From a virus (taxonomy: Duplodnaviria; Heunggongvirae; Uroviricota; Caudoviricetes): DNA of 17,312 nucleotides. Position numbers and translations under genes: made by a program. Shown in pieces: positions 1,364 to 17,312 of this stretch (position 1 is the stretch's first letter; each line of letters starts with the position of its first letter). The notes below the pieces were generated by a model, which saw nothing but the letters and a program-made list of their open reading frames with translations, did not search any database and was not told where the DNA came from. The stretch is taken from IMG/VR virus record IMGVR_UViG_2563366888_000002, positions 1 to 17,312 of that record; one strand, 5' to 3'.

Positions 1364-2647
1364 TTACTTCTTCGCCTCTGCAACCACTTTACTACCCACG
1401 CCGCGGTTATTGTATTCCCACATGCGGTTGTAGTTAGTGTCATTCAGATTGCGCTGTATTTCGTCGTTATCATCTACGCTGCCGGTATTACCCGCAAACG
1501 GACGATTAGAGATCACCGCATCGGCCCACGGTTTAGCCGTGTTAAAACCTTCGTTGATGGCGCTATCACGGATCACCACCTGACCGTTGGTATTGGCATC
1601 AACATCCAGCGAGCGGCCCAGTTGCGCCACACCATCACCGAAAGCATTGAAACGGCTGTTTACGGCGAGGAAACCGTAGTAAATGTTGGACAGCGTAGCC
1701 GGTGCAAACACATACGCTTCTTGCTGAGTACGTGAGTTCACCACGCGGAATTCGGTGTTATCGAACACCACTGCGCCGCGACCAGAAACGATATCCACAT
1801 CCCCTTCAATGTAGCTGTTGGTCACCAGCGTACGCGGCTGACGATTCGTTTCCAGACGGTTCTGCACACCGCTGTTGGTGACAAAGAAGGTGTTCTGACG
1901 ACCGAGAATGTTAACGTTGTTAATCTGTACCTGGTCACCATCAGTACGCAGTGCCACCGCCGGATGGTTACCTGCATCTACGCTATCGCCCAGCGTGTTT
2001 TCGATGGTCAGATTTTGCAGTTGCAGGCCATTGTTTTGTGACCAGAAGACCGCAGAGCAGAGAACACCGATACTGTCGCTGCGTTTGCTCTGGCAGCTAT
2101 CGTACATATACCACGCTGGTTTACCTGGCATATATTTGCCGCGCGGGTTGACGTCGTGACGCCAGTCGGCAGGGCTCATGCCACCATCAAGGGAAAGCCC
2201 AATCTTCACATCAATCGGTTTTTCACCTGTACCGTACAGAGTAATTCCACCCGGAGCGGCAGGGACATATACCGTTCCCTGATACTCACCAGGCATCACG
2301 GCAATATACTGGCGCTTGTTGGTACGCTTGATAATTGCCGCATCTACCGCCGCCTGAATCGTGGTATGCGTTACACCTTGAGTGCCCGCCGGGCCGACAA
2401 CAAAGTCAGGTTGCGCAGGCAGGGTAATCGGGGAAGGATTCCACGCTGCAGCACCTGGTGTCAGGGATGCAAAATAGTGTTGAGCATCGAAATTCTGCGC
2501 TTCTTTTGCCGACAGAATCGGGCGAGAAGAGGTACCAGGCGCGGTTTGATCAGAAGGACGTTGATCGGGCGGGGTTGAGCTACAGGCGGTCAGCGTCACG
2601 CCAAAAGCCAATGCCAGCGCCAGACGGGAAACTGAAAATGTGTTCAC
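1364..2647 (-). CDS. ybhC: YbhC-like outer-membrane lipoprotein, pectinesterase family
   Basis: 427-aa ORF. N-terminal signal peptide with lipobox (LTAC). Sequence recognised as YbhC. Lies immediately beside the lambda attachment core. Confidence 0.85.
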   Translation of the reverse strand: MNTFSVSRLALALAFGVTLTACSSTPPDQRPSDQTAPGTSSRPILSAKEAQNFDAQHYFASLTPGAAAWNPSPITLPAQPDFVVGPAGTQGVTHTTIQAAVDAAIIKRTNKRQYIAVMPGEYQGTVYVPAAPGGITLYGTGEKPIDVKIGLSLDGGMSPADWRHDVNPRGKYMPGKPAWYMYDSCQSKRSDSIGVLCSAVFWSQNNGLQLQNLTIENTLGDSVDAGNHPAVALRTDGDQVQINNVNILGRQNTFFVTNSGVQNRLETNRQPRTLVTNSYIEGDVDIVSGRGAVVFDNTEFRVVNSRTQQEAYVFAPATLSNIYYGFLAVNSRFNAFGDGVAQLGRSLDVDANTNGQVVIRDSAINEGFNTAKPWADAVISNRPFAGNTGSVDDNDEIQRNLNDTNYNRMWEYNNRGVGSKVVAEAKK

Positions 2648-2693: not shown

Positions 2694-2785
2694 GCTTTTT
2701 TATACTAAGTTGGCATTATAAAAAAGCATTGCTTATCAATTTGTTGCAACGAACAGGTCACTATCAGTCAAAATAAAATCATTAT
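2694..2785. other. Prophage attL: lambda 15-bp core GCTTTTTTATACTAA (2694..2708) plus P' arm with arm-type Int sites
   Basis: Exact lambda core sequence. Downstream arm contains AGGTCACTAT / CAGTCAAAAT / AAATCATTAT repeats (lambda P'1-P'3 pattern). Bacterial ybhC sequence on the left, int on the right. Confidence 0.9.
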
Positions 2786-3852
2786 TTGATTTCAATTTTG
2801 TCCCACTCCCTGCCTCTGTCATCACGATACTGTGATGCCATGGTGTCCGACTTATGCCCGAGAAGATGTTGAGCAAACTTATCGCTTATCTGCTTCTCAT
2901 AGAGTCTTGCAGACAAACTGCGCAACTCGTGAAAGGTAGGCGGATCCCCTTCGAAGGAAAGACCTGATGCTTTTCGTGCGCGCATAAAATACCTTGATAC
3001 TGTGCCGGATGAAAGCGGTTCGCGACGAGTAGATGCAATTATGGTTTCTCCGCCAAGAATCTCTTTGCATTTATCAAGTGTTTCCTTCATTGATATTCCG
3101 AGAGCATCAACATGCAATGCTGTTGGGATGGCAATTTTTACGCCTGTTTTGCTTTGCTCGACATAAAGATATCCATCTACGATATCAGACCACTTCATTT
3201 CGCATAAATCACCAACTCGTTGCCCGGTAACAACAGCCAGTTCCATTGCAAGTCTGAGCCAACATGGTGATGATTCTGCTGCTTGATAAATTTTCAGGTA
3301 TTCGTCAGCCGTAAGTCTTGATCTCCTTACCTCTGATTTTGCTGCGCGAGTGGCAGCGACAGGGTTTGTTGTTATATGGCCTTCAGCTATTGCCTCTCGG
3401 AATGCATCGCTCAGTGTTGATCTGATTAACTTGGCTGACGCCGCCTTGCCCTCGTCTATGTATCCATTGAGCATTGCCGCAATTTCTTTTGTGGTGATGT
3501 CTTCAAGTGGAGCATCAGGCAGACCCCTCCTTATTGCTTTAATTTTGCTCATGTAATTTATGAGTGTCTTCTGCTTGATTCCTCTGCTGGCCAGGATTTT
3601 TTCGTAGCGATCAAGCCATGAATGTAACGTAACGGAATTATCACTGTTGATTCTCGCTGTCAGAGGCTTGTGTTTGTGTCCTGAAAATAACTCAATGTTG
3701 GCCTGTATAGCTTCAGTGATTGCGATTCGCCTGTCTCGGCCTAATCCAAACTCTTTACCCGTCCTTGGGTCCCTGTAGCAGTAATATCCATTGTTTCTTA
3801 TATAAAGGTTAGGGGGTAAATCCCGGCGCTCATGACTTCGCCTTCTTCCCAT
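2782..3852 (-). CDS. int: Lambda-type integrase (tyrosine recombinase)
   Basis: 356-aa ORF. Translation recognised as lambda Int essentially end to end (MGRRRSHERRDLPPNLYIRNNGYY...HLLGHKSDTMASQYRDDRGREWDKIEIK). Confidence 0.95.
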   Translation of the reverse strand: MGRRRSHERRDLPPNLYIRNNGYYCYRDPRTGKEFGLGRDRRIAITEAIQANIELFSGHKHKPLTARINSDNSVTLHSWLDRYEKILASRGIKQKTLINYMSKIKAIRRGLPDAPLEDITTKEIAAMLNGYIDEGKAASAKLIRSTLSDAFREAIAEGHITTNPVAATRAAKSEVRRSRLTADEYLKIYQAAESSPCWLRLAMELAVVTGQRVGDLCEMKWSDIVDGYLYVEQSKTGVKIAIPTALHVDALGISMKETLDKCKEILGGETIIASTRREPLSSGTVSRYFMRARKASGLSFEGDPPTFHELRSLSARLYEKQISDKFAQHLLGHKSDTMASQYRDDRGREWDKIEIK

Positions 3853-4324: not shown

Positions 4325-4603
4325 CGCATTCGTTCAAATTGCGTTTACTTCTTGGCGTTCTGTTCATCCATATCGATATACCATGGGTTGCTTCCCTTGG
4401 GCATGTTTAACGACTGCTCGCGATAGTATCTGATGCGCTCCATGAAATACTCGCGTGAGTGCTCAGGTTGCTCTCATGATACCTGCTCAGTGATAACAGG
4501 TATGTTAAGGCGCTCTCTGTACTCCATGCCTGATGCTGCAAGGTCAACGTTTACCTTGTTCTGTTTTTCTTTCGATTTCTCGGCGATGTTATGCCTGACA
4601 TTG

Positions 4604-4888
4604 TCAACCCGCCTCCTTCTGAACATAACGGTTATAAATCAGTCCCTGAGGGCCATAAGGAAGCGGGATGTGCAACTCCTCTGGTTCAGAAACTATCCAT
4701 TCCCCGGCCATCTCCGCTGGAGAGGTAATGATAAGTTGTTTGCTAATAAAAGGACCACTCCTCTCAACAACAAGCTTACCATCTTCATTAATAAAAGCTT
4801 GGATGTCAGGTGTGCTTCCACACTTGGTGATGCAGCGTTTGAACATTTTGTGTCCCCCCATTTTATGGACGGGGTAATTATAACACAT
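4604..4888 (-). CDS. Hypothetical protein (94 aa; possibly about 80 aa from an internal ATG preceded by a G-rich SD-like run)
   Basis: ORF from track; occupies the ea8.5 position but is not recognisably Ea8.5. No SD before the first ATG; GGGGGG 7 nt before the third Met codon. The antisense plus-strand ORF 4433..4891 looks low-complexity. Confidence 0.45.
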   Translation of the reverse strand: MCYNYPVHKMGGHKMFKRCITKCGSTPDIQAFINEDGKLVVERSGPFISKQLIITSPAEMAGEWIVSEPEELHIPLPYGPQGLIYNRYVQKEAG

Positions 4889-7523: not shown

Positions 7524-7678
7524 ACAGCTCCCCGTTTATTATTTATCTCCTCAGCCAGCCGCTGTGCTTTCAGGGGATTTCTGATAACAGAAAGGCCGGG
7601 AAATACCCAGCCTCGCTTTGTAATGGAGTAGACGAAAGTGATCGCGCCCACCCGGATATTATCGTGAGGATGCGTCAT
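7496..7678 (-). CDS. Lambda orf60a-like small protein (60 aa from the ATG that overlaps the exo stop)
   Basis: Track ORF 7496..7684. The start at 7678 gives 60 aa and a 4-nt ATGA overlap with the exo stop, matching lambda organisation. Confidence 0.5.
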
Positions 7679-8355
7679 CGCCATTGCTCCCCAAATACAA
7701 AACCAATTTCAGCCAGTGCCTCGTCCATTTTTTCGATGAACTCCGGCACCATCTCGTCAAAACTCGCCATGTACTTTTCATCCCGCTCAACCACGACATA
7801 ATGCAGGCCTTCACGCTTCATACGCGGGTCATAGTTGGCAAAGTACCAGGCATCTTTTCGCGTCACCCACATGCTGTACTGCACCTGGGCCATGTAAGCC
7901 GACTTTATGGCCTCGAAACCACCGAGCCGGAACTTCATGAAATCCCGGGAGGTAAACGGGCATTTCAGCTCAAGGCCATTGCCGTCACTGCATAAACCAT
8001 CGGGAGAGCAGGCGGTACGCATACTTTCGTCGCGATAGATGATCGGGGATTCAGTAACATTCACGCCGGAAGTGAATTCAAACAGAGTTCTGGCGTCGTT
8101 CTCGTACTGTTTTCCCCATGCCAGCGCCTTAGCATTAACTTCCGGAGCCACACCGGTGCAAACCTCAGCCAGCAGGGTGTGGAAGTAGGACATTTTCATG
8201 TCAGGCCACTTTTTTCCGGAGCGGGGTTTTGCTATCACATTGTGAACTTCTGAAGCGGTGATGACGCCGAGCCGTAATTTGTGCCACGCATCATCCCCCT
8301 GTTCGACAGCTCTCACGTCGATTCCGGTACGCTGCAGGATAATGTCCGGTGTCAT
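7675..8355 (-). CDS. exo: Exonuclease (Red-alpha)
   Basis: 226-aa ORF recognised as lambda Exo ([54 protein letters not shown]...). Confidence 0.95.
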
Positions 8356-9137
8356 GCAGCCACCTTCTGCTCAGTGGCTTTCTGTTTCAGGAATCCAAGA
8401 GCTTTCACTGCTTCGGCCTGTGTCAGTTCTGACGATGCGCGAATGTCGCGGCGAAATATCTGGGAACAGAGCGGCAATAAGTCGTCATCCCATGTTTTAT
8501 CCAGGGCAATCAGCAGAGTGTTAATCTCCTGCATGGTTTCATCGTTAACCGGAGTGATGTCGCGTTCCGGCTGACGTTCTGCAGTGTATGCGGTATTTTC
8601 GACAATGCGCTCGGCTTCATCCTTGTCATAGATACCCGCAAATCCGAAGGCCAGACGGGCACACTGAATCATGGCTTTATGCCGTAACATCCGTTTGGGA
8701 TGCGACTGCCACGGCCCCGTAATTTCTCTGCCTTCGCGGGTTTTGAATGGTTCGCGGCGGCATTCATCCATCCACTCGGTAACGCAGATCGGATGATTAC
8801 GGTCCTTGCGGTAAATCCGGCATGTACAGGATTCATTGTCCTGCTCAAAGTCCATGCCATCAAACTGCTGGTTTTCATTGATGATGCGGGACCAGCCATC
8901 AACGCCCACCACCGGAACGATGCCATTCTGCTTATCAGGAAAGGTGTAAATTTCTTTCGTCCACGGATTAAGGCCGTACTGGTTGGCAACGATCAGTAAT
9001 GCGATGAACTGCGCATCGCTGGCATCACCTTTAAATGCCGTCTGGCGAAGAGTGGTGATCAGTTCCTGTGGGTCGACAGAATCCATGCCGACACGTTCAG
9101 CCAGCTTCCCAGCCAGCGTTGCGAGTGCTGTACTCAT
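8352..9137 (-). CDS. bet: Recombination protein Bet (Red-beta single-strand annealing protein)
   Basis: 261-aa ORF recognised as lambda Bet ([59 protein letters not shown]...). Confidence 0.95.
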
Positions 9138-9142
9138 CCGTT

Positions 9143-9439
9143 TTATACCTCTGAATCAATATCAACCTGGTGGTGAGCAATGGTTTCAACCATGTACCGG
9201 ATGTGTTCTGCCATGCGCTCCTGAAACTCAACATCGTCATCAAACGCACGGGTAATGGCTTTTTTGCTGGCCCCGTGGCGTTGCAAATGATCGATGCATA
9301 GCGATTCAAACAGGTGCTGGGGCAGGCCTTTTTCCATGTCGTCTGCCAGTTCTGCCTCTTTCTCTTCACGGGCGATCTGCTGGTAGTGACGCGCCCAGCT
9401 CTGAGCCTCAAGACGATCCTGAATGTAATAAGCGTTCAT
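9143..9439 (-). CDS. gam: Gam, RecBCD inhibitor (98-aa short form; the longer N-terminal extension is not in frame here)
   Basis: Translation [21 protein letters not shown]...[10 protein letters not shown] recognised as lambda GamS. In-frame stop at 9494-9496 upstream; the lambda-like extension peptide [15 protein letters not shown] is encoded in the +1 frame. Confidence 0.9.
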
Positions 9440-9514
9440 GGCTGAACTCCTGAAAATGGCTGTGAAAATATCGCCCGCGAAATGCCAGGCTGATTAGGAA
9501 AACAGGAAAGGGGA

Positions 9515-9721
9515 TTAGCGATTCAGGCCGTTACCGCGTCCGTCGAGAAAAACTTCCACGAGCAAATCACGGGTATAAGTGCGCTCGATGCCGCGATGCA
9601 GATAAAGCCGTCCGCGTAAATTAGCTGATGCAGTCCAGGTACCATCTTTGTGTTTGACCAGCATTCCTGGCATGACCGCACCTCGATTAACGGTCTGCGT
9701 TCCGTAATGTTGATGAACCAT
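9515..9721 (-). CDS. Small hypothetical protein in the kil position (68 aa from the SD-supported ATG); frame stays open upstream to a TTG at 9925
   Basis: AGGAG 5 nt before the ATG at 9721. The 136-codon track ORF starts on TTG with no SD. Non-lambda sequence. Confidence 0.45.
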
Positions 9722-9943
9722 AAAAACTCCTGCCCGTAAGCTGGGCTGCTGAACATATAGAGACTTCTGCGCGTATTCAGGCGGTGGATGGCCGCCGGTT
9801 GTCATAACTAAGTCGCCTCGTTGAAGCGACTGAGGTATGAAGTGTTGAGTTGATTTCAGCTGGTCACACCGACGTTCACGCGTCCGCTTCACCCCTCGCA
9901 CTCCCCGAAGCCTGCTGAAATTCAAACTGCGGATCTAAGCGGT

Positions 9944-10072
9944 CATCGCAACGGTGAAACAGGTGGTTACCGTATCGTTGTGTCGTTGCGATGAATTTAT
10001 TTAAAACTATAGTTGTTTTATCGTCAACAACAAAAGTTGTTTTGTCGGTTGTTTTAAATATAACTGGTTGTA
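9944..10072 (-). promoter_or_regulatory. Candidate OL/pL region and early leftward leader: 10-bp inverted repeat with 30-bp spacer plus GTTGTT/AACAAC operator-like half-sites
   Basis: CATCGCAACG (9944-9953) pairs with CGTTGCGATG (9984-9993). Half-sites AGTTGTTTT (10011-10019), CAACAAC (10025-10031), AGTTGTTTT (10035-10043), GGTTGTTTT (10048-10056), CTGGTTGTA (10064-10072). The same half-site recurs in the cI-cro intergenic region. No promoter hexamers confidently placed. Confidence 0.4.
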
Positions 10073-10161
10073 TTTAGGATGGATTTATTTTGTGACTTGC
10101 ATCGCATAGCGATAACTGAAGTGAGGTGTGGTGGTTTTTTGGACGGTATGAGTTATGAGGG

Positions 10162-10193
10162 GGAGGAAAAGAAAACCCGGCGCGGTTGCCGGG
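10162..10193 (-). terminator. Intrinsic terminator downstream of the lipoprotein gene (end of the cI-side operon)
   Basis: Stem CCCGGC/GCCGGG (10176-10181/10188-10193) with 6-nt loop, followed on the minus-strand RNA by UUUUCUUUUCC. 9 nt after the lipoprotein stop. Confidence 0.6.
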
Positions 10194-10201
10194 TATGATT
10201 A

Positions 10202-10582
10202 TCAGTCAGCCCAACCTGATTTCGAGTTTATTTGGGTTTCTGACATTGTGTATTTCTTAATCGTGTCATCGTTAAAAAGAATAGTAAGTTCTTTTTTCGT
10301 ACCGTTCGTTCCATTATGGAATAATCCATAGAATGGAATAAAAGTGGTGCCATTAACTTTTACTTTTGCAAAGGCGTACTTCCAGATCTCGTTTCCACTG
10401 TCAGTATATGAAACAGCATCAGGAGAACCAAAGTAAGATTTAACCTCATTCTTGGTTGTTTTACCTTCCTGAAGTTTAGACTGGACACTAATTTCAGTTT
10501 CATTTTTGAGTTGCTGGTTGCCTGAAGAAGCACACCCAGCCAATACAGATGCCATCATGGCAGCGATTAGGATTTTTCTCAT
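10202..10582 (-). CDS. BamE/SmpA-OmlA-like small lipoprotein; moron in the rex position downstream of cI
   Basis: 126-aa ORF. Signal peptide with lipobox LAGC. The EGKTTKNEVKSYFGSPD...WKY pattern resembles the BamE fold motif. Same strand as cI and followed by a terminator. Confidence 0.7.
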   Translation of the reverse strand: MRKILIAAMMASVLAGCASSGNQQLKNETEISVQSKLQEGKTTKNEVKSYFGSPDAVSYTDSGNEIWKYAFAKVKVNGTTFIPFYGLFHNGTNGTKKELTILFNDDTIKKYTMSETQINSKSGWAD

Positions 10583-10811
10583 TTTATGTTTCCATTCATT
10601 ATAATCAGAAACATCTTAACATAATGATTCGAAATAAAAACCGCTACGAGATAGGGGGACATTTTGCTGACAGTAGCAACAAATCTCAGCTAACAACGAG
10701 AATATTTACTGAAATATGCAAACAGATTTGGCGTTCTTATAGAGAATTTAGTGCAATATCTAATCCGAGTGGTATAAACCTTAACCTTCGCTCCCTTAAG
10801 TCGTAGATAAA

Positions 10812-11501
10812 TTAACCATGCTTCCTGTACGTCTGCGGCATGCTTCCAATGACCTTACCGAATATGAACACCCGGTTCATCTCGTCTTTCTCGATCGGGT
10901 CCCACGGCGAGTAGCTCTTGTTATCAGAGATAACCAGCAGCTTATCCTTCATCATTTGAAGACGTTTTACATGGGCAGTGTCGTCGTACAGAAACGCATA
11001 GATGCCATCACCGTCGAAAGATTTAACAGTGATATCAACGAACAGCAGGTCACCTGGTTCGATCGTCCCTGACATGCTGTCACCTCGCACGTTAATGATG
11101 CGGATATTTTCCGCCTTCCTGCCATCGAACATGTGACGAGCATCGTCAAACGAGTACTCAACCGAGCGTAGAACTTCTACAAACTCACGGTTGATTACAC
11201 CTGGCCCGGCACTGACTTCTATATCAAGAACGTCAATTTTGAAGTATTTGGAATGGCTGACAGTTGATTGTATTGGTTGCACTGTACTGTCTGACATATT
11301 TCCAACGCCAGAAGATAACCATTCTGCGCGCACACCCAAAGCGTTCGCGATCTCCACGATTTTAGTTGTTTGGTTAGCTTTCCCTGTTTCGATTTTCTGA
11401 ATAGCAGCCTGGCTAACCCCGACCAAATCCCCAAGCGCCTTTTGTGTAAGGCCTCGCGCTAATCTGGCTTCTTTAAGTCTTTCTGAGAGTGTTGTTTTCA
11501 T
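10812..11501 (-). CDS. cI: CI-type prophage repressor (N-terminal HTH_XRE, C-terminal S24 LexA-like peptidase domain)
   Basis: 229-aa ORF. HTH segment LTQKALGDLVGVSQAAIQKIETGK. Candidate Ala-Gly autocleavage site (VSAGPG). Ser/Lys dyad motifs GDSM and HVKRL. No SD before the ATG, consistent with a leaderless pRM-type transcript. Not lambda immunity. Confidence 0.85.
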   Translation of the reverse strand: MKTTLSERLKEARLARGLTQKALGDLVGVSQAAIQKIETGKANQTTKIVEIANALGVRAEWLSSGVGNMSDSTVQPIQSTVSHSKYFKIDVLDIEVSAGPGVINREFVEVLRSVEYSFDDARHMFDGRKAENIRIINVRGDSMSGTIEPGDLLFVDITVKSFDGDGIYAFLYDDTAHVKRLQMMKDKLLVISDNKSYSPWDPIEKDEMNRVFIFGKVIGSMPQTYRKHG

Positions 11502-11605
11502 AGATCAAATGTACAACCAAGGTTTTATTTCATCAAACGAAAATGGTTGTTGACTAAAAACAACCATAGTTTTAATCTTGATTCGGATTAACCACGGAGG
11601 TTGTT
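11502..11605. promoter_or_regulatory. Divergent promoter/operator region (OR; pR-like promoter for cro, leaderless pRM-like start for cI)
   Basis: Rightward TTGACT (11550-11555), 17-bp spacer, TAATCT (11573-11578), then GGAGG before the cro ATG. Inverted repeat ATGGTTGTT (11542-11550) / AACAACCAT (11559-11567) overlaps the -35. Confidence 0.6.
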
Positions 11606-11836
11606 ATGAACCCAGCAATCAAAACAGCGATCAATATCGTTGGTTCACAAAAGAAACTAGGCGATGCCTGCGAAGTTTCACAGCAGGCCGTCTATAAGTG
11701 GCTTCACAACAAAGCAAAGGTATCCCCTGAACATGTCGGCAGCATTGTTACGGCTACTGGTGGAGTTGTGAAGGCATACCAGATTCGCCCGGATCTTCCG
11801 AAGTTGTTTCCACACACCGAAAAGAACGCAGCTTAA
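11606..11836 (+). CDS. Cro-like HTH regulator (YdaS-like)
   Basis: 76-aa ORF divergent from cI with a strong SD. HTH-like segment KKLGDACEVSQQAVYKWLHN. Family call from memory. Confidence 0.7.
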   Translation: MNPAIKTAINIVGSQKKLGDACEVSQQAVYKWLHNKAKVSPEHVGSIVTATGGVVKAYQIRPDLPKLFPHTEKNAA

Positions 11837-11905
11837 ATTTCCATTTCACGCTCTTTAACAATAAGCAATCAACTTAACAGTCAATTCAAACTAAAGGAGT
11901 CAATT

Positions 11906-12445
11906 ATGCAACCACTTACATACCAACAGACTAGCGGATTTATTCCGACTGCGGTGATAAATCGTTCTCAAACAAAACAAGCTCCAGGCCACGAAAAAAT
12001 CCGTGATGCCGTCCGCGCCTGGTCGGCTGTAGATAATCAGGATGTCGTTGCCGCACTCATTGTGAATGAGTATCGGGAGCAGGGCGACGGCACCATCGAT
12101 TTCCCTGATGATGTCAGCCGTGCACGCCAGAAGCTGTTCCGCTTCCTCGATAACAAATTCGATTCTGAAAAATACCGAAATAACGTGCGTGAACTGACCC
12201 CGGCAATTCTGGCGGTACTACCGCTGGAATATCGCGGTTACCTGGTTGAGCAGGATAGCTTCATGACTCGGTTGGCTGAAATGGAAAAGGAACTCAGTGA
12301 GGCAAAACAGGCTGTCATTCTCAACGCACCACGCCACCAGAAACTGAAGGAAATGAGTGAAGGTATTGTGTCGATGTTTCGTGTGGACCCGGATCTGGCT
12401 GGTCCATTAATGGCGATGGTGACCACCATGCTGGGGGCAATATGA
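11906..12445 (+). CDS. CII-position regulatory protein (YdaT/CII-like), 179 aa
   Basis: AAGGAG SD. Located between cro-like and O with an ATGA overlap at the 3' end. Assignment is by position, not recognised sequence. Confidence 0.45.
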   Translation: MQPLTYQQTSGFIPTAVINRSQTKQAPGHEKIRDAVRAWSAVDNQDVVAALIVNEYREQGDGTIDFPDDVSRARQKLFRFLDNKFDSEKYRNNVRELTPAILAVLPLEYRGYLVEQDSFMTRLAEMEKELSEAKQAVILNAPRHQKLKEMSEGIVSMFRVDPDLAGPLMAMVTTMLGAI

Positions 12446-12531
12446 CAGGTTCAGAAATGGCGAAAGTCGGTCTGCGGGAACAGAACCGACTTTCAGGTGC
12501 AAATCGTAACACACTCATTGCGGGAGGAATT

Positions 12532-13461
12532 ATGGCAAACACTGCTGAGATATTCAATTTTCCAGTGCCGGATGCGGCACAAAAGGAGCCGCGCGTGGCA
12601 GATCTCGATGATGGTTATACGCGCATTGCAAATGAGTTGCTGGAAGCTGTGATGCTGGCCGGATTAACACAGCACCAGCTTCTGGTCTTCCTGGCTGTCA
12701 TGCGCAAAACATATGGCTTTAATAAAAAACTGGATTGGGTGAGCAACGAGCAACTTTCCGAGTTGACCGGGATATTGCCGCACAAGTGTTCTGCTGCAAA
12801 AAGCGTTCTGGTAAAGCGTGGGATTCTTATTCAGAGCGGGCGGAATATCGGCATTAATAATGTGGTCAGTGAATGGTCAACATTACCCGAATCAGGTAAG
12901 AAAAATAAAGTTTACCTGAAAGAGGTAAATTTACCTGAATCAGGTAAGAAAAGTTTACCCAAATCAGGTAAAGGCGTTTACCCGAATCAGGTAAACACAA
13001 AAGACAAACTAACAAAAGACAATATAAAACCTTTTTCGTCCGAGAATTCTGGCGAATCCTCTGACCAACCAGAAAACGATCTTCCTGTGGAGAAACCAGA
13101 TGCTGCAATTCAGAGCGGCAGCAGGTGGGGGACAGCAGAAGACCTGACCGCCGCAGAGTGGATGTTTGACATGGTGAAGACCATCGCGCCATCAGCCAGA
13201 AAACCGAATTTTGCAGGGTGGGCTAACGATATCCGCCTGATGCGTGAACGTGACGGACGTAACCACCGCGACATGTGCGTGCTGTTCCGCTGGGCATGCC
13301 AGGACAACTTCTGGTCCGGTAACGTGCTAAGTCCGGCCAAACTCCGCGACAAGTGGACCCAACTCGAAATCAACCGTAACAAGCAACAGGCTGGCGTGAC
13401 AGCCGGAAAATCAAAACTCGACCTGACAAACACTGACTGGATTTATGGGGTGGATTTATGA
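12532..13461 (+). CDS. O: Replication initiator O (non-lambda N-terminal iteron-binding domain, lambda-like C-terminal P-interaction domain)
   Basis: Conserved O motif ADLDDGY...LLEA...RKTYGFNK...SNEQLSELTG and lambda-like C-terminus (...WIYGVDL). Start set at 12532 (GGGAGG 5 nt upstream; aligns with the lambda O N-terminus). The track ORF begins at 12442. Confidence 0.85.
   Translation: MANTAEIFNFPVPDAAQKEPRVADLDDGYTRIANELLEAVMLAGLTQHQLLVFLAVMRKTYGFNKKLDWVSNEQLSELTGILPHKCSAAKSVLVKRGILIQSGRNIGINNVVSEWSTLPESGKKNKVYLKEVNLPESGKKSLPKSGKGVYPNQVNTKDKLTKDNIKPFSSENSGESSDQPENDLPVEKPDAAIQSGSRWGTAEDLTAAEWMFDMVKTIAPSARKPNFAGWANDIRLMRERDGRNHRDMCVLFRWACQDNFWSGNVLSPAKLRDKWTQLEINRNKQQAGVTAGKSKLDLTNTDWIYGVDL
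12883..12995. repeat. Replication origin iterons inside O (five about 18-bp direct repeats), followed by an A/T-rich segment to about 13040
   Basis: TTACCCGAATCAGGTAAG (12883), TTTACCTGAAAGAGGTAAA (12911), TTACCTGAATCAGGTAAG (12931), TTACCCAAATCAGGTAAA (12954), TTACCCGAATCAGGTAAA (12978), then ACAAAAGACAAACTAACAAAAGACAATATAAAA. Classic lambdoid ori architecture. Confidence 0.8.
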
Positions 13462-14970: not shown

Positions 14971-14987
14971 CAAAAAAATTTCATATG

Positions 14988-15012
14988 AACCCAGTTGGCG
15001 CTGGGTTTTTTA
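14988..15012 (+). terminator. Intrinsic terminator after the secreted-protein gene
   Basis: Stem AACCCAG/CTGGGTT (14988-14994/15001-15007) with loop TTGGCG, followed by TTTTTAT. Confidence 0.65.
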
Positions 15013-17253: not shown

Positions 17254-17312
17254 TGAACCGCCCCGGGTTTCCTGGAGAGTGTTTTATCTGTGAACTCAGG
17301 CTGCCAGATCAT
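17254..17312 (-). mobile_element. IS3-family insertion sequence end (same element type as at 1..93, opposite orientation, truncated by window edge)
   Basis: Starts TGAACCGCCCCGGG...; 17254..17312 is the exact reverse complement of 37..95. Interrupts rusA. Confidence 0.7.

Follow-up and report, generated by a model that had tools for sequence, protein, structure and literature searches.

Positions 9722-9996 of the stretch of Escherichia coli lambdoid prophage analysed here (IMG/VR virus record IMGVR_UViG_2563366888_000002; 17,312 nucleotides, hereafter the window) lie between the early leftward promoter pL and the gene kil, at the place where phage lambda carries nutL and the antiterminator gene N. 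This segment is non-coding, and it is neither an N gene nor an antiterminator RNA of the put family. We consider it probable that it is the ~270-nt untranslated leader of the pL transcript in a lambdoid prophage without N, a three-module mosaic with other RNA in the place of the nutL-N-tL1 block, and that the proximal genes behind it are expressed without antitermination. An initial annotation, made from the letters and their open reading frames (ORFs), had offered three options for this place: an N-like antiterminator with a non-canonical start, a protein-independent RNA like the put elements of HK022, or leftward transcription that is not antiterminated. A hidden N-like protein and a put-like RNA are not upheld, and the arginine-rich frame that had suggested the former is an ordinary chance ORF in a leader. 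The third option is the best fit for the proximal genes, before which a tL1-type terminator is missing, but it leaves the distal terminators to be accounted for.

The arginine-rich frame upstream of kil

On the minus strand the frame is open for 136 codons, from a TTG at 9925 to the end of kil at 9515, in frame with kil, and it encodes ...RLRGVRGVKRTRERR... at 9913-9869, as the initial annotation had described. The accompanying remark that the frame lacks an ATG is right in so far as it starts with TTG, but an ATG does occur further along the frame, at 9805-9803, which is 28 codons ahead of the start of kil. Substitution patterns separate the two halves of the frame: variable sites fall on the three codon positions as 10/7/10 in the 204-nt extension and as 2/5/19 in kil, at equal site density. 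These counts come from 33 distinct homologues (two non-homologous rows were excluded from the kil tally) that were retrieved via an RNA motif instead of Kil, so there is no ascertainment on protein; an independent sequence set gave 11/6/9 for the extension. More than half of the distinct leaders (17 of 32) have the frame broken, twelve by an in-frame TAG (C9832>T, a bulged base of the hairpin A described below), three by a 5-nt insertion and two by other breaks. The motif KRTRERR, which resembles the arginine-rich motif TRRRERR of lambda N, is present, and in relatives it is changed to KRTCERR (R>C) and KWTRERR (R>W). Possible starts of the extension are limited to TTG or GTG, none with a spaced Shine-Dalgarno sequence.

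Homology searches agree with this picture. The long frame matched only Kil in Pfam and PHROG, with its C-terminal half, and the 68-residue extension searched by itself had no family at E<=1 except a sub-threshold YajC match (E 0.14). A tblastn search of the extension against 50,697 phage records (E<=10) gave no match to N and found only its own family and the hairpin element (residues 29-66), so the relationship to N-type families that had been proposed was found by none of these routes. The arginine codons are supplied by the segment 9853-9921 and are there because it is G-rich: the C/G ratio is 0.44-0.55 in this part of the leader and about 0.45 across 9951-9890. The arginine-rich frame is no gene but a non-coding ORF that is open by chance. 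The first option, an N-like antiterminator, is not supported, for the frame lacks a coding signature, a homologue and a boxA or boxB partner, and it is broken in about half of the distinct relatives.

The gene proposed initially in the kil position behind a Shine-Dalgarno sequence is real. It matches phrog_294 (E = 1.8e-38, profile positions 4-79 of 83), shows the coding substitution pattern given above, is annotated by RefSeq as a coding sequence (CDS), lies before gam, and has homologues in other genera that begin at the same MV(H/N)QHYGT. It is the first real gene of the early-left operon. The practical value of this result is negative: judging from these comparisons, the long 'Kil' annotations of 125-136 aa, including that of the PhiR26_1 record, are over-extensions of the 68-aa protein. 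In PhiR26_1 (L114) the deposited 'Kil' CDS occupies 4498-4875, has 125 aa and starts at a GTG inside the arginine-rich frame.

Neither N and nut nor put

The initial statement that no N gene is recognisable holds well beyond the leader. No N ORF lies between pL and kil, ten further early ORFs of the window had no match to antiterminator PHROGs, and in the complete 48.2-kb genome of PhiR26_1 Q is the sole annotated antiterminator. The leader is also without nut elements, as had been claimed: positions 9700-10000 contain no boxA (YGCTCTTTA-like) and no boxB hairpin with a GNRNA-type pentaloop, in a scan that detected the lambda nutL control. This does not extend to the pR side, where a perfect rrn-type boxA follows cro at 11849-11861, with no boxB beside it. 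This boxA hints at an involvement of Nus factors on the right arm. In 4A7-type relatives cro is separated from the CII-like gene by no more than ~30 nt, and the boxA is therefore not universal in the family.

In HK022, another N-less lambdoid phage, the structured antiterminator RNA putL is placed directly after pL (PMC9378689). We made a covariance model (R1) of six put sequences, HK022 putL and putR and the putL homologues of phiEt88, CobraSix, S9-5 and HK639, taken from BLAST matches and GenBank putL annotations with a putL numbering that agrees with PMC9378689. True put sequences score 53.7-93.6 bits with this model, whereas the best score in 9400-12600, with filters off, was 4.7 bits; the window has no match, nor do PhiR26_1, 4A7 or a third immunity class (L005). 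Membership in the put family, the second of the options named at the outset, is therefore rejected. What is put-like is the placement of a 5' hairpin and of the G-rich mid-leader just downstream of the predicted pL in a phage without N.

Other Enterobacteriaceae prophages in which kil comes first carry other structured leaders, and none of these matches the put model either. One type is a long hairpin, GUGAGCUUCGCGGUGGUG...CACCACCAGCGAAGUUCAC, beside the Shine-Dalgarno sequence of kil; another is a ~100-nt CCACC...GGUGG element right after a pL-like promoter (loci L088, L091, L093, L095, L096 and L107, upstream of kil; loci L089, L096, L108 and L111).

Terminators along the early-left operon

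Between pL (9995) and exo (7675-8355) the minus strand has no credible intrinsic terminator, so antitermination is not required for the proximal early-left genes. Between kil and gam (9473-9490, minus strand) there is a weak hairpin that resembles a terminator, GCCTGGCATTTCGCGGGC then GATATTTTCA. Strong intrinsic terminators do stand further on, four of them before xis and int and one in the pR operon (Table 1). Of these, 7019-7001 is also conserved in PhiR26_1. In a phage without N and put, such terminators call for extra promoters for the distal genes or for an antitermination mechanism that has gone unrecognised.

A covarying hairpin that belongs to the kil module

The kil-proximal part of the leader (module 3, 9839-9780) is a ~60-nt element common to several genera, always found 5' of the kil module. 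Its hairpin A is, as the comparison of variants indicates, the sole element of the leader under clear selection. Across 27 distinct variants, from phi80, HK225, HK639-type phages, Enterobacter ENT1, Klebsiella KO-TP1 and IMG/VR and genome loci, 96% of the cells of its 15 pairs are paired and seven pairs have compensatory changes. At least seven different stem sequences maintain one architecture. The hairpin folds with z = -5.1. Its covariation scores 0.338; shuffles give 0.128, with none of 500 reaching 0.338, and sliding the partners gives 0.07 at most. The covariation runs across phages of Escherichia, Enterobacter, Klebsiella, Citrobacter and Siccibacter. The basal helix pairs CAUA (9839-9836) with UAUG (9806-9803), and because of this pairing the AUG at 9805-9803 is invariant in all 27 variants. 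A search of 9000-12500 of the window with Rfam 15 (E<=10) returned four chance-level matches, none on the sense strand of 9722-9996, and we know of no described function for this hairpin. Hairpin B follows; no variation was seen in its stem among the sequences sampled, owing in part to ascertainment by the search pattern, and the variant of locus L106 retains a GCGG/CCGC stem with a similar loop.

The company kept by hairpin A tells to which system it belongs. A covariance model of it (R2) finds exactly one copy per locus, in the N-bearing phi80 and HK225 (L085, L086), in the put-bearing HK639, CobraSix and S9-5 (L116, L117, L118), and in the N-less window and PhiR26_1. Occurring with N, with put and with neither, it is no antiterminator and belongs to the kil module, not to an antitermination system. 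Comparison of the leader with 25 kil loci from other genera by blastn gave the hairpin A module as the sole shared part, and local alignments with the pL-N regions of phi80 and HK225 are credible only for the first ~25 nt and for this module, the rest being gap-ridden. In phi80, HK225, KO-TP1, ENT1 and HK639, hairpin A stands directly 3' of a tL1-type intrinsic terminator, which in phi80 follows the annotated N gene.

Hairpins A and B were considered as intrinsic terminators of the window and rejected, for they have no U-tract: the tails are UUAGUUAUGA after hairpin A, with no conserved U-run across variants, and UGAAUACG after hairpin B, and a terminator scan of the window reports neither. 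In HK639, hairpin B with its U-run (AGCAUAUUUUU) was annotated as a terminator by the depositors.

A separate repeated motif, AAAGCATTTCTCCCGCATCAGCGGGTAAC (hairpin CCCGC-AUCA-GCGGG), occurs just 5' of successive early-left genes, the N gene of phi80 included (Table 1), perhaps as a signal for translation or processing that is used repeatedly.

The predicted start of the transcript and its 5' stem-loop

The predicted pL has the architecture of pR (TTGACT-17-TAATCT, ~11550-11578), and both promoters are embedded in AACAAC/GTTGTT operator repeats. Relatives of other immunity types have exactly the pL/operator patch swapped and the DNA to either side conserved, which is the behaviour expected of OL/pL. 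Transcription is predicted from the promoter sequence to start at about 9992 (+/-3). Over its first ~25 nt (CATCGCAACGACACAACGA) the leader is related to the beginnings of the pL transcripts in phi80, HK225, KO-TP1 and HK639 (CATCGAAACGAAACATCGA).

At this 5' end lies an inverted repeat, TCATCGCAACG at 9943-9953 and CGTTGCGATGA at 9984-9994. The initial annotation had given it 10-bp arms and a 30-bp spacer; the repeat is real and perfect and the 30-nt spacer is confirmed, but the arms are 11 nt long. By chance 0.3 perfect 11-nt inverted repeats with a spacer of at most 60 are expected per 17.3-kb window, so the repeat is in itself just mildly unusual and is notable for its position; at least one arose in 21% of first-order Markov simulations. 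Structure prediction, which had been suggested for this region, gives a fold of -19.2 kcal/mol (z = -4.4). The resulting stem-loop has a 30-nt loop with a small internal hairpin and covers the first ~50 nt of the predicted transcript. Among 52 distinct relatives, the changes 9993 C>U and 9992 A>G retain pairing via G-U, and 9984 G>A abolishes the apical pair in 47. The third immunity class, with its breakpoint at 9958, has another 5' end, AUUGCA, and this too can pair with the unchanged 3' arm, UGCGAU. The hairpin is thus kept in three immunity classes, with changes that preserve wobble pairs.

Modules, spread and prophage setting

Set beside 80 IMG/VR loci whose encoded Kil is identical, the region shows mosaic breakpoints at three places: 10193, 9958 (in the loop of the 5' hairpin) and 9777. 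Homology to many relatives stops at the first, in the terminator of the cI-moron transcription unit. Module 2 (9958-9845) is specific to this family of E. coli phages. Its G-rich mid-leader is predicted to form a three-way junction with z = -2.1, barely better than shuffled sequence; the whole leader has z = -1.35. No second copy of the 5' part plus mid-leader was found in the window or in the PhiR26_1 genome with nhmmer and blastn-short.

The leader 9722-9996 is also present in the sequenced phages PhiR26_1 and 4A7. The 851 bases around it are 100% identical in several complete E. coli chromosomes, 99% identical in PhiR26_1 and about 91% in 4A7 and its relatives. Of 5426 complete E. coli genomes, 2210 carry the mid-leader (9843-9960 of the window), always with >=90% identity and hence with too little variation for a covariation test, and in the 30 rows listed for these 2210 genomes RefSeq annotates no CDS over it.

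The prophage adjoins ybhC, at the place of the attachment site of lambda itself, and its early-left gene order is kil-gam-bet-exo (Table 1). At the ends of the window, the last 59 nt (17254-17312) are the exact reverse complement of 35-93, and a ybhJ-like ORF (102-1223) carries a tandem duplication of a 15-residue stretch; both could reflect a rearrangement or an assembly artefact.

Table 1. Features in and around the pL leader (positions in the window unless another record is named).
Feature	Position	Strand	Remarks
int	2782-3852		followed by xis on the way to exo, bet, gam, kil
Strong intrinsic terminators before xis/int	7019-7001, 4325-4305, 4294-4275, 4098-4079	-	
exo	7675-8355		
gam	9143-9439		
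kil	9515-9721	-	68 aa, 207-nt CDS; ATG at 9721 behind GGAG Shine-Dalgarno; exact CDS annotated by RefSeq
68-codon open frame upstream of kil	9722-9925	-	arginine-rich motif 9913-9869; chance ORF
GC hairpin B	9780-9796	-	GGCGG-CCAUCCA-CCGCC, then conserved block GCGCAGAAGUCU at 9773-9762
Conserved hairpin A	9803-9839	-	basal CAUA/UAUG, CU/AG, 9-bp core 9831-9823 with 9819-9811, loop AAC
G-rich mid-leader	9853-9921	-	two small hairpins, closed by a predicted helix (9911-9921 with 9853-9863)
5'-terminal stem-loop of the pL transcript	9943-9994	-	11-bp potential, ~9 bp with start at 9992
Predicted pL	9999-10027	-	-35 TTGACG 10027-10022, 17-nt spacer, -10 TTAAAT 10004-9999
Intrinsic terminator of the cI-moron (lipoprotein) transcription unit	10175-10194	-	upstream of OL/pL
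Lipoprotein moron	10202-10582		right of the leader
CI-like repressor	10812-11501		right of the leader
YdaS-type Cro	11606-11836		right of the leader; followed by a YdaT/CII-like gene, then O and P
rrn-type boxA	11849-11861	+	perfect, 13 nt (CGCTCTTTAACAA); nutR position, 13 nt after the cro stop
Strong intrinsic terminator in the pR operon	14987-15008	+	between pR and the nin/Q region
Strong terminators of PhiR26_1 (L114)	2000-1986; 11828-11842	-; +	one upstream of Q
AAAGCATTTCTCCCGCATCAGCGGGTAAC motif, phi80 (L085)	~790-760	-	
AAAGCATTTCTCCCGCATCAGCGGGTAAC motif, HK225 (L086)	~3270-3295, ~3493-3515		
AAAGCATTTCTCCCGCATCAGCGGGTAAC motif, L113	~2236-2262		
AAAGCATTTCTCCCGCATCAGCGGGTAAC motif, L112	~2270-2300		

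Discussion

The arrangement of modules suggests how such a leader could have arisen and how it could work. Downstream of a phi80-like pL start (CATCG.AACGA.ACA.CGA), ~130 nt of terminator-free RNA would have taken the place of the nutL-N-tL1 block that stood before the kil module, and kil, gam, bet and exo would then be transcribed directly from pL once repression lifts, without antitermination. The functions of the two structured elements we infer from their structure and position. The 5'-terminal stem-loop most likely protects the 5' end from RppH/RNase E-dependent decay, as in ompA-type mRNAs, and hairpin A, which would sequester the AUG at 9805-9803, most likely acts through the RNA of the toxic kil module, on its processing, its stability or the entry of ribosomes.

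Several observations weigh against this account. In a window as long as this one, chance alone will not rarely produce an 11-nt inverted repeat. Most relatives lack the apical pair of the 5' hairpin, and their stability falls to -9 to -13 kcal/mol, and as the hairpin has no fully compensatory change, selection on its pairing is weakly supported. The start of pL is a predicted one, and a start more than ~5 nt from 9992 in either direction would weaken the idea of a 5' protector. The identity of at least 90% among the mid-leaders of 2210 genomes is compatible with a function of this segment as much as with recent spread. The strong distal terminators imply some read-through mechanism or extra promoters, neither of which the account names.

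Two alternatives would have the leader translated. If the arginine-rich frame encoded an N-like antiterminator, beginning at TTG 9925 or GTG 9892 and made alone or as an N-terminal extension of Kil, its arginine-rich motif would bind an RNA hairpin. KRTRERR does look like the lambda motif, about half of the relatives, like the window, have an open frame, and one phage record annotates a 125-aa 'Kil' from GTG. We give this almost no credence, because there is no third-position bias (10/7/10, against 2/5/19 in kil), a stop or frameshift falls between motif and kil in 17 of 32 distinct leaders, arginines within the motif are changed to C and W, and the frame has no ATG and no usable Shine-Dalgarno sequence; moreover, the Pfam, PHROG and tblastn searches gave no N, the leader has no GNRNA-loop boxB hairpin and no boxA to act upon, RefSeq annotates nothing there in the 30 genome rows listed, and the arginine codons follow from the G-rich composition. 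The second alternative takes the AUG at 9805-9803 as the start of a translated upstream ORF (MTTGGHPPP...), with hairpin A as its translational operator, read either in frame into kil to give a 96-aa Kil or as a proline-stalling leader peptide coupled to the translation of kil, PPP being a motif of EF-P-dependent stalling. The invariance of this AUG in 27 of 27 variants would fit, as would the short MTTGGHPPP...EVLY* ORFs of many relatives, which differ in the lengths of their middle parts, the annotation of CobraSix gp49 from the equivalent AUG, and the alignment of PHROG 294 from residue 60 of the long frame, nine residues before the annotated Met. However, the basal helix CAUA/UAUG accounts for the AUG and its flanks, no Shine-Dalgarno sequence is conserved (the 3' arm, 10 nt from the AUG, reads GAGG, GAGC or GAGU), the sequence diverges straight after CCACCGCC, and L106 keeps the hairpins with an unrelated peptide. 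Variable sites in 9804-9722 are spread as 7/7/6 over the codon positions. Among phages the block GCGCAGAAGTCTTGTAT is read in all three frames (..EVLY*, ..KSLYV.., ..RSLV*) and the ORFs have lengths of 15 to 200 aa, so conservation of the RNA combined with insertions and deletions explains the apparent upstream ORF, and its fusion in frame with kil in this family, better, and we regard its translation as rather unlikely.

The other two alternatives concern the nucleic acid itself. The inverted repeat might act as DNA, as an extra operator or as the site of another protein overlapping the transcription start; it abuts OL/pL, and the majority variant of its 5' arm holds AACAAC, the operator half-site of the same immunity type. 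This is highly improbable, given that the arm sequence is the same in 4A7-type phages despite their different operators, that the 30-nt spacer compares with 4-7 nt between the half-sites of operators here, and that the 3' arm is part of the kil-side module, outside the immunity module, the breakpoint being at 9958; as an operator the repeat is rejected because it is not immunity-specific. Alternatively, the 5' hairpin, the G-rich junction 9853-9921 or both could form a protein-independent processive antiterminator, put-like in function and unrelated in sequence, that carries RNA polymerase past the distal terminators before xis and int. Such an RNA would suit a phage that has neither N nor put and yet meets strong intrinsic terminators on the way from pL to xis and int, of which one is also conserved in PhiR26_1. 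It would also suit an element that lies right after pL, like putL (PMC9378689), and whose mid-leader is highly conserved and kept with three different immunity regions. The want of a second copy is no disqualification, since the HK639 record annotates a put-like element only downstream of pL; even so, the pR operon, which also has a strong terminator, is left without one. The failure to match the put model, the modest z of the mid-leader and of the whole leader, the lack of covariation behind any of the structures proposed for this role, and the fact that distal genes could have promoters of their own make us regard this antiterminator as unlikely. Also improbable, in our judgement, is the broader proposal that the 5' hairpin together with 9853-9921 is a new, put-unrelated cis-acting RNA that makes polymerase resistant to termination and that hairpin A is an undescribed cis-regulatory RNA of the kil module. 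An untranslated leader that dispenses with antitermination of the proximal genes remains our preferred reading.

Two points give this leader a wider interest. Some 40% of complete E. coli genomes carry its family-specific mid-leader, and how transcription towards xis/int and Q passes the intrinsic terminators is explained by no known module; the passage of terminators in an N-less, put-less family is a classical question of lambdoid timing that is testable by simple reporter fusions. The ~40-nt hairpin upstream of the toxic kil module, for its part, combines unusually clear covariation with the lack of an entry in the RNA family database.

Comparison with known systems

Hairpins at the 5' end of ompA-type E. 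coli mRNAs stabilise the transcript. The leader resembles these in having a stable stem at, or within a few nucleotides of, its predicted 5' end and a long untranslated region behind it; it differs in that the stem is weaker in most relatives and in that the 5' end is a predicted one. With HK022 and HK639 the prophage shares the N-less lambdoid background and a structured RNA right after a pL that is here predicted, but the conserved put core, CGAACGG...GGCGGGUUCAGG..GGCAAU, is absent. RNAs of the put family act in cis to promote read-through of terminators, and mutations in the zinc-binding domain of rpoC block this action. The leader occupies the place of N and nutL in lambda, between OL/pL and kil-gam-bet-exo, and the first ~25 nt of its transcript are related to phi80-type pL leaders that bear boxA and N, whereas the leader itself is without N ORF, boxA and boxB. 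The lipoprotein gene and the terminator 10194-10175 sit where rex sits in lambda. The closest likeness is with the region after tL1 in phi80, HK225 and HK639. There a strong terminator stands directly before hairpin A, preceded in phi80 by N in a block that is absent here, and in HK639 hairpin B is followed by a U-run that the window does not have; hairpin A, hairpin B and the GCGCAGAAGTCT block are nevertheless homologous in all of them and lead in the same order to kil.

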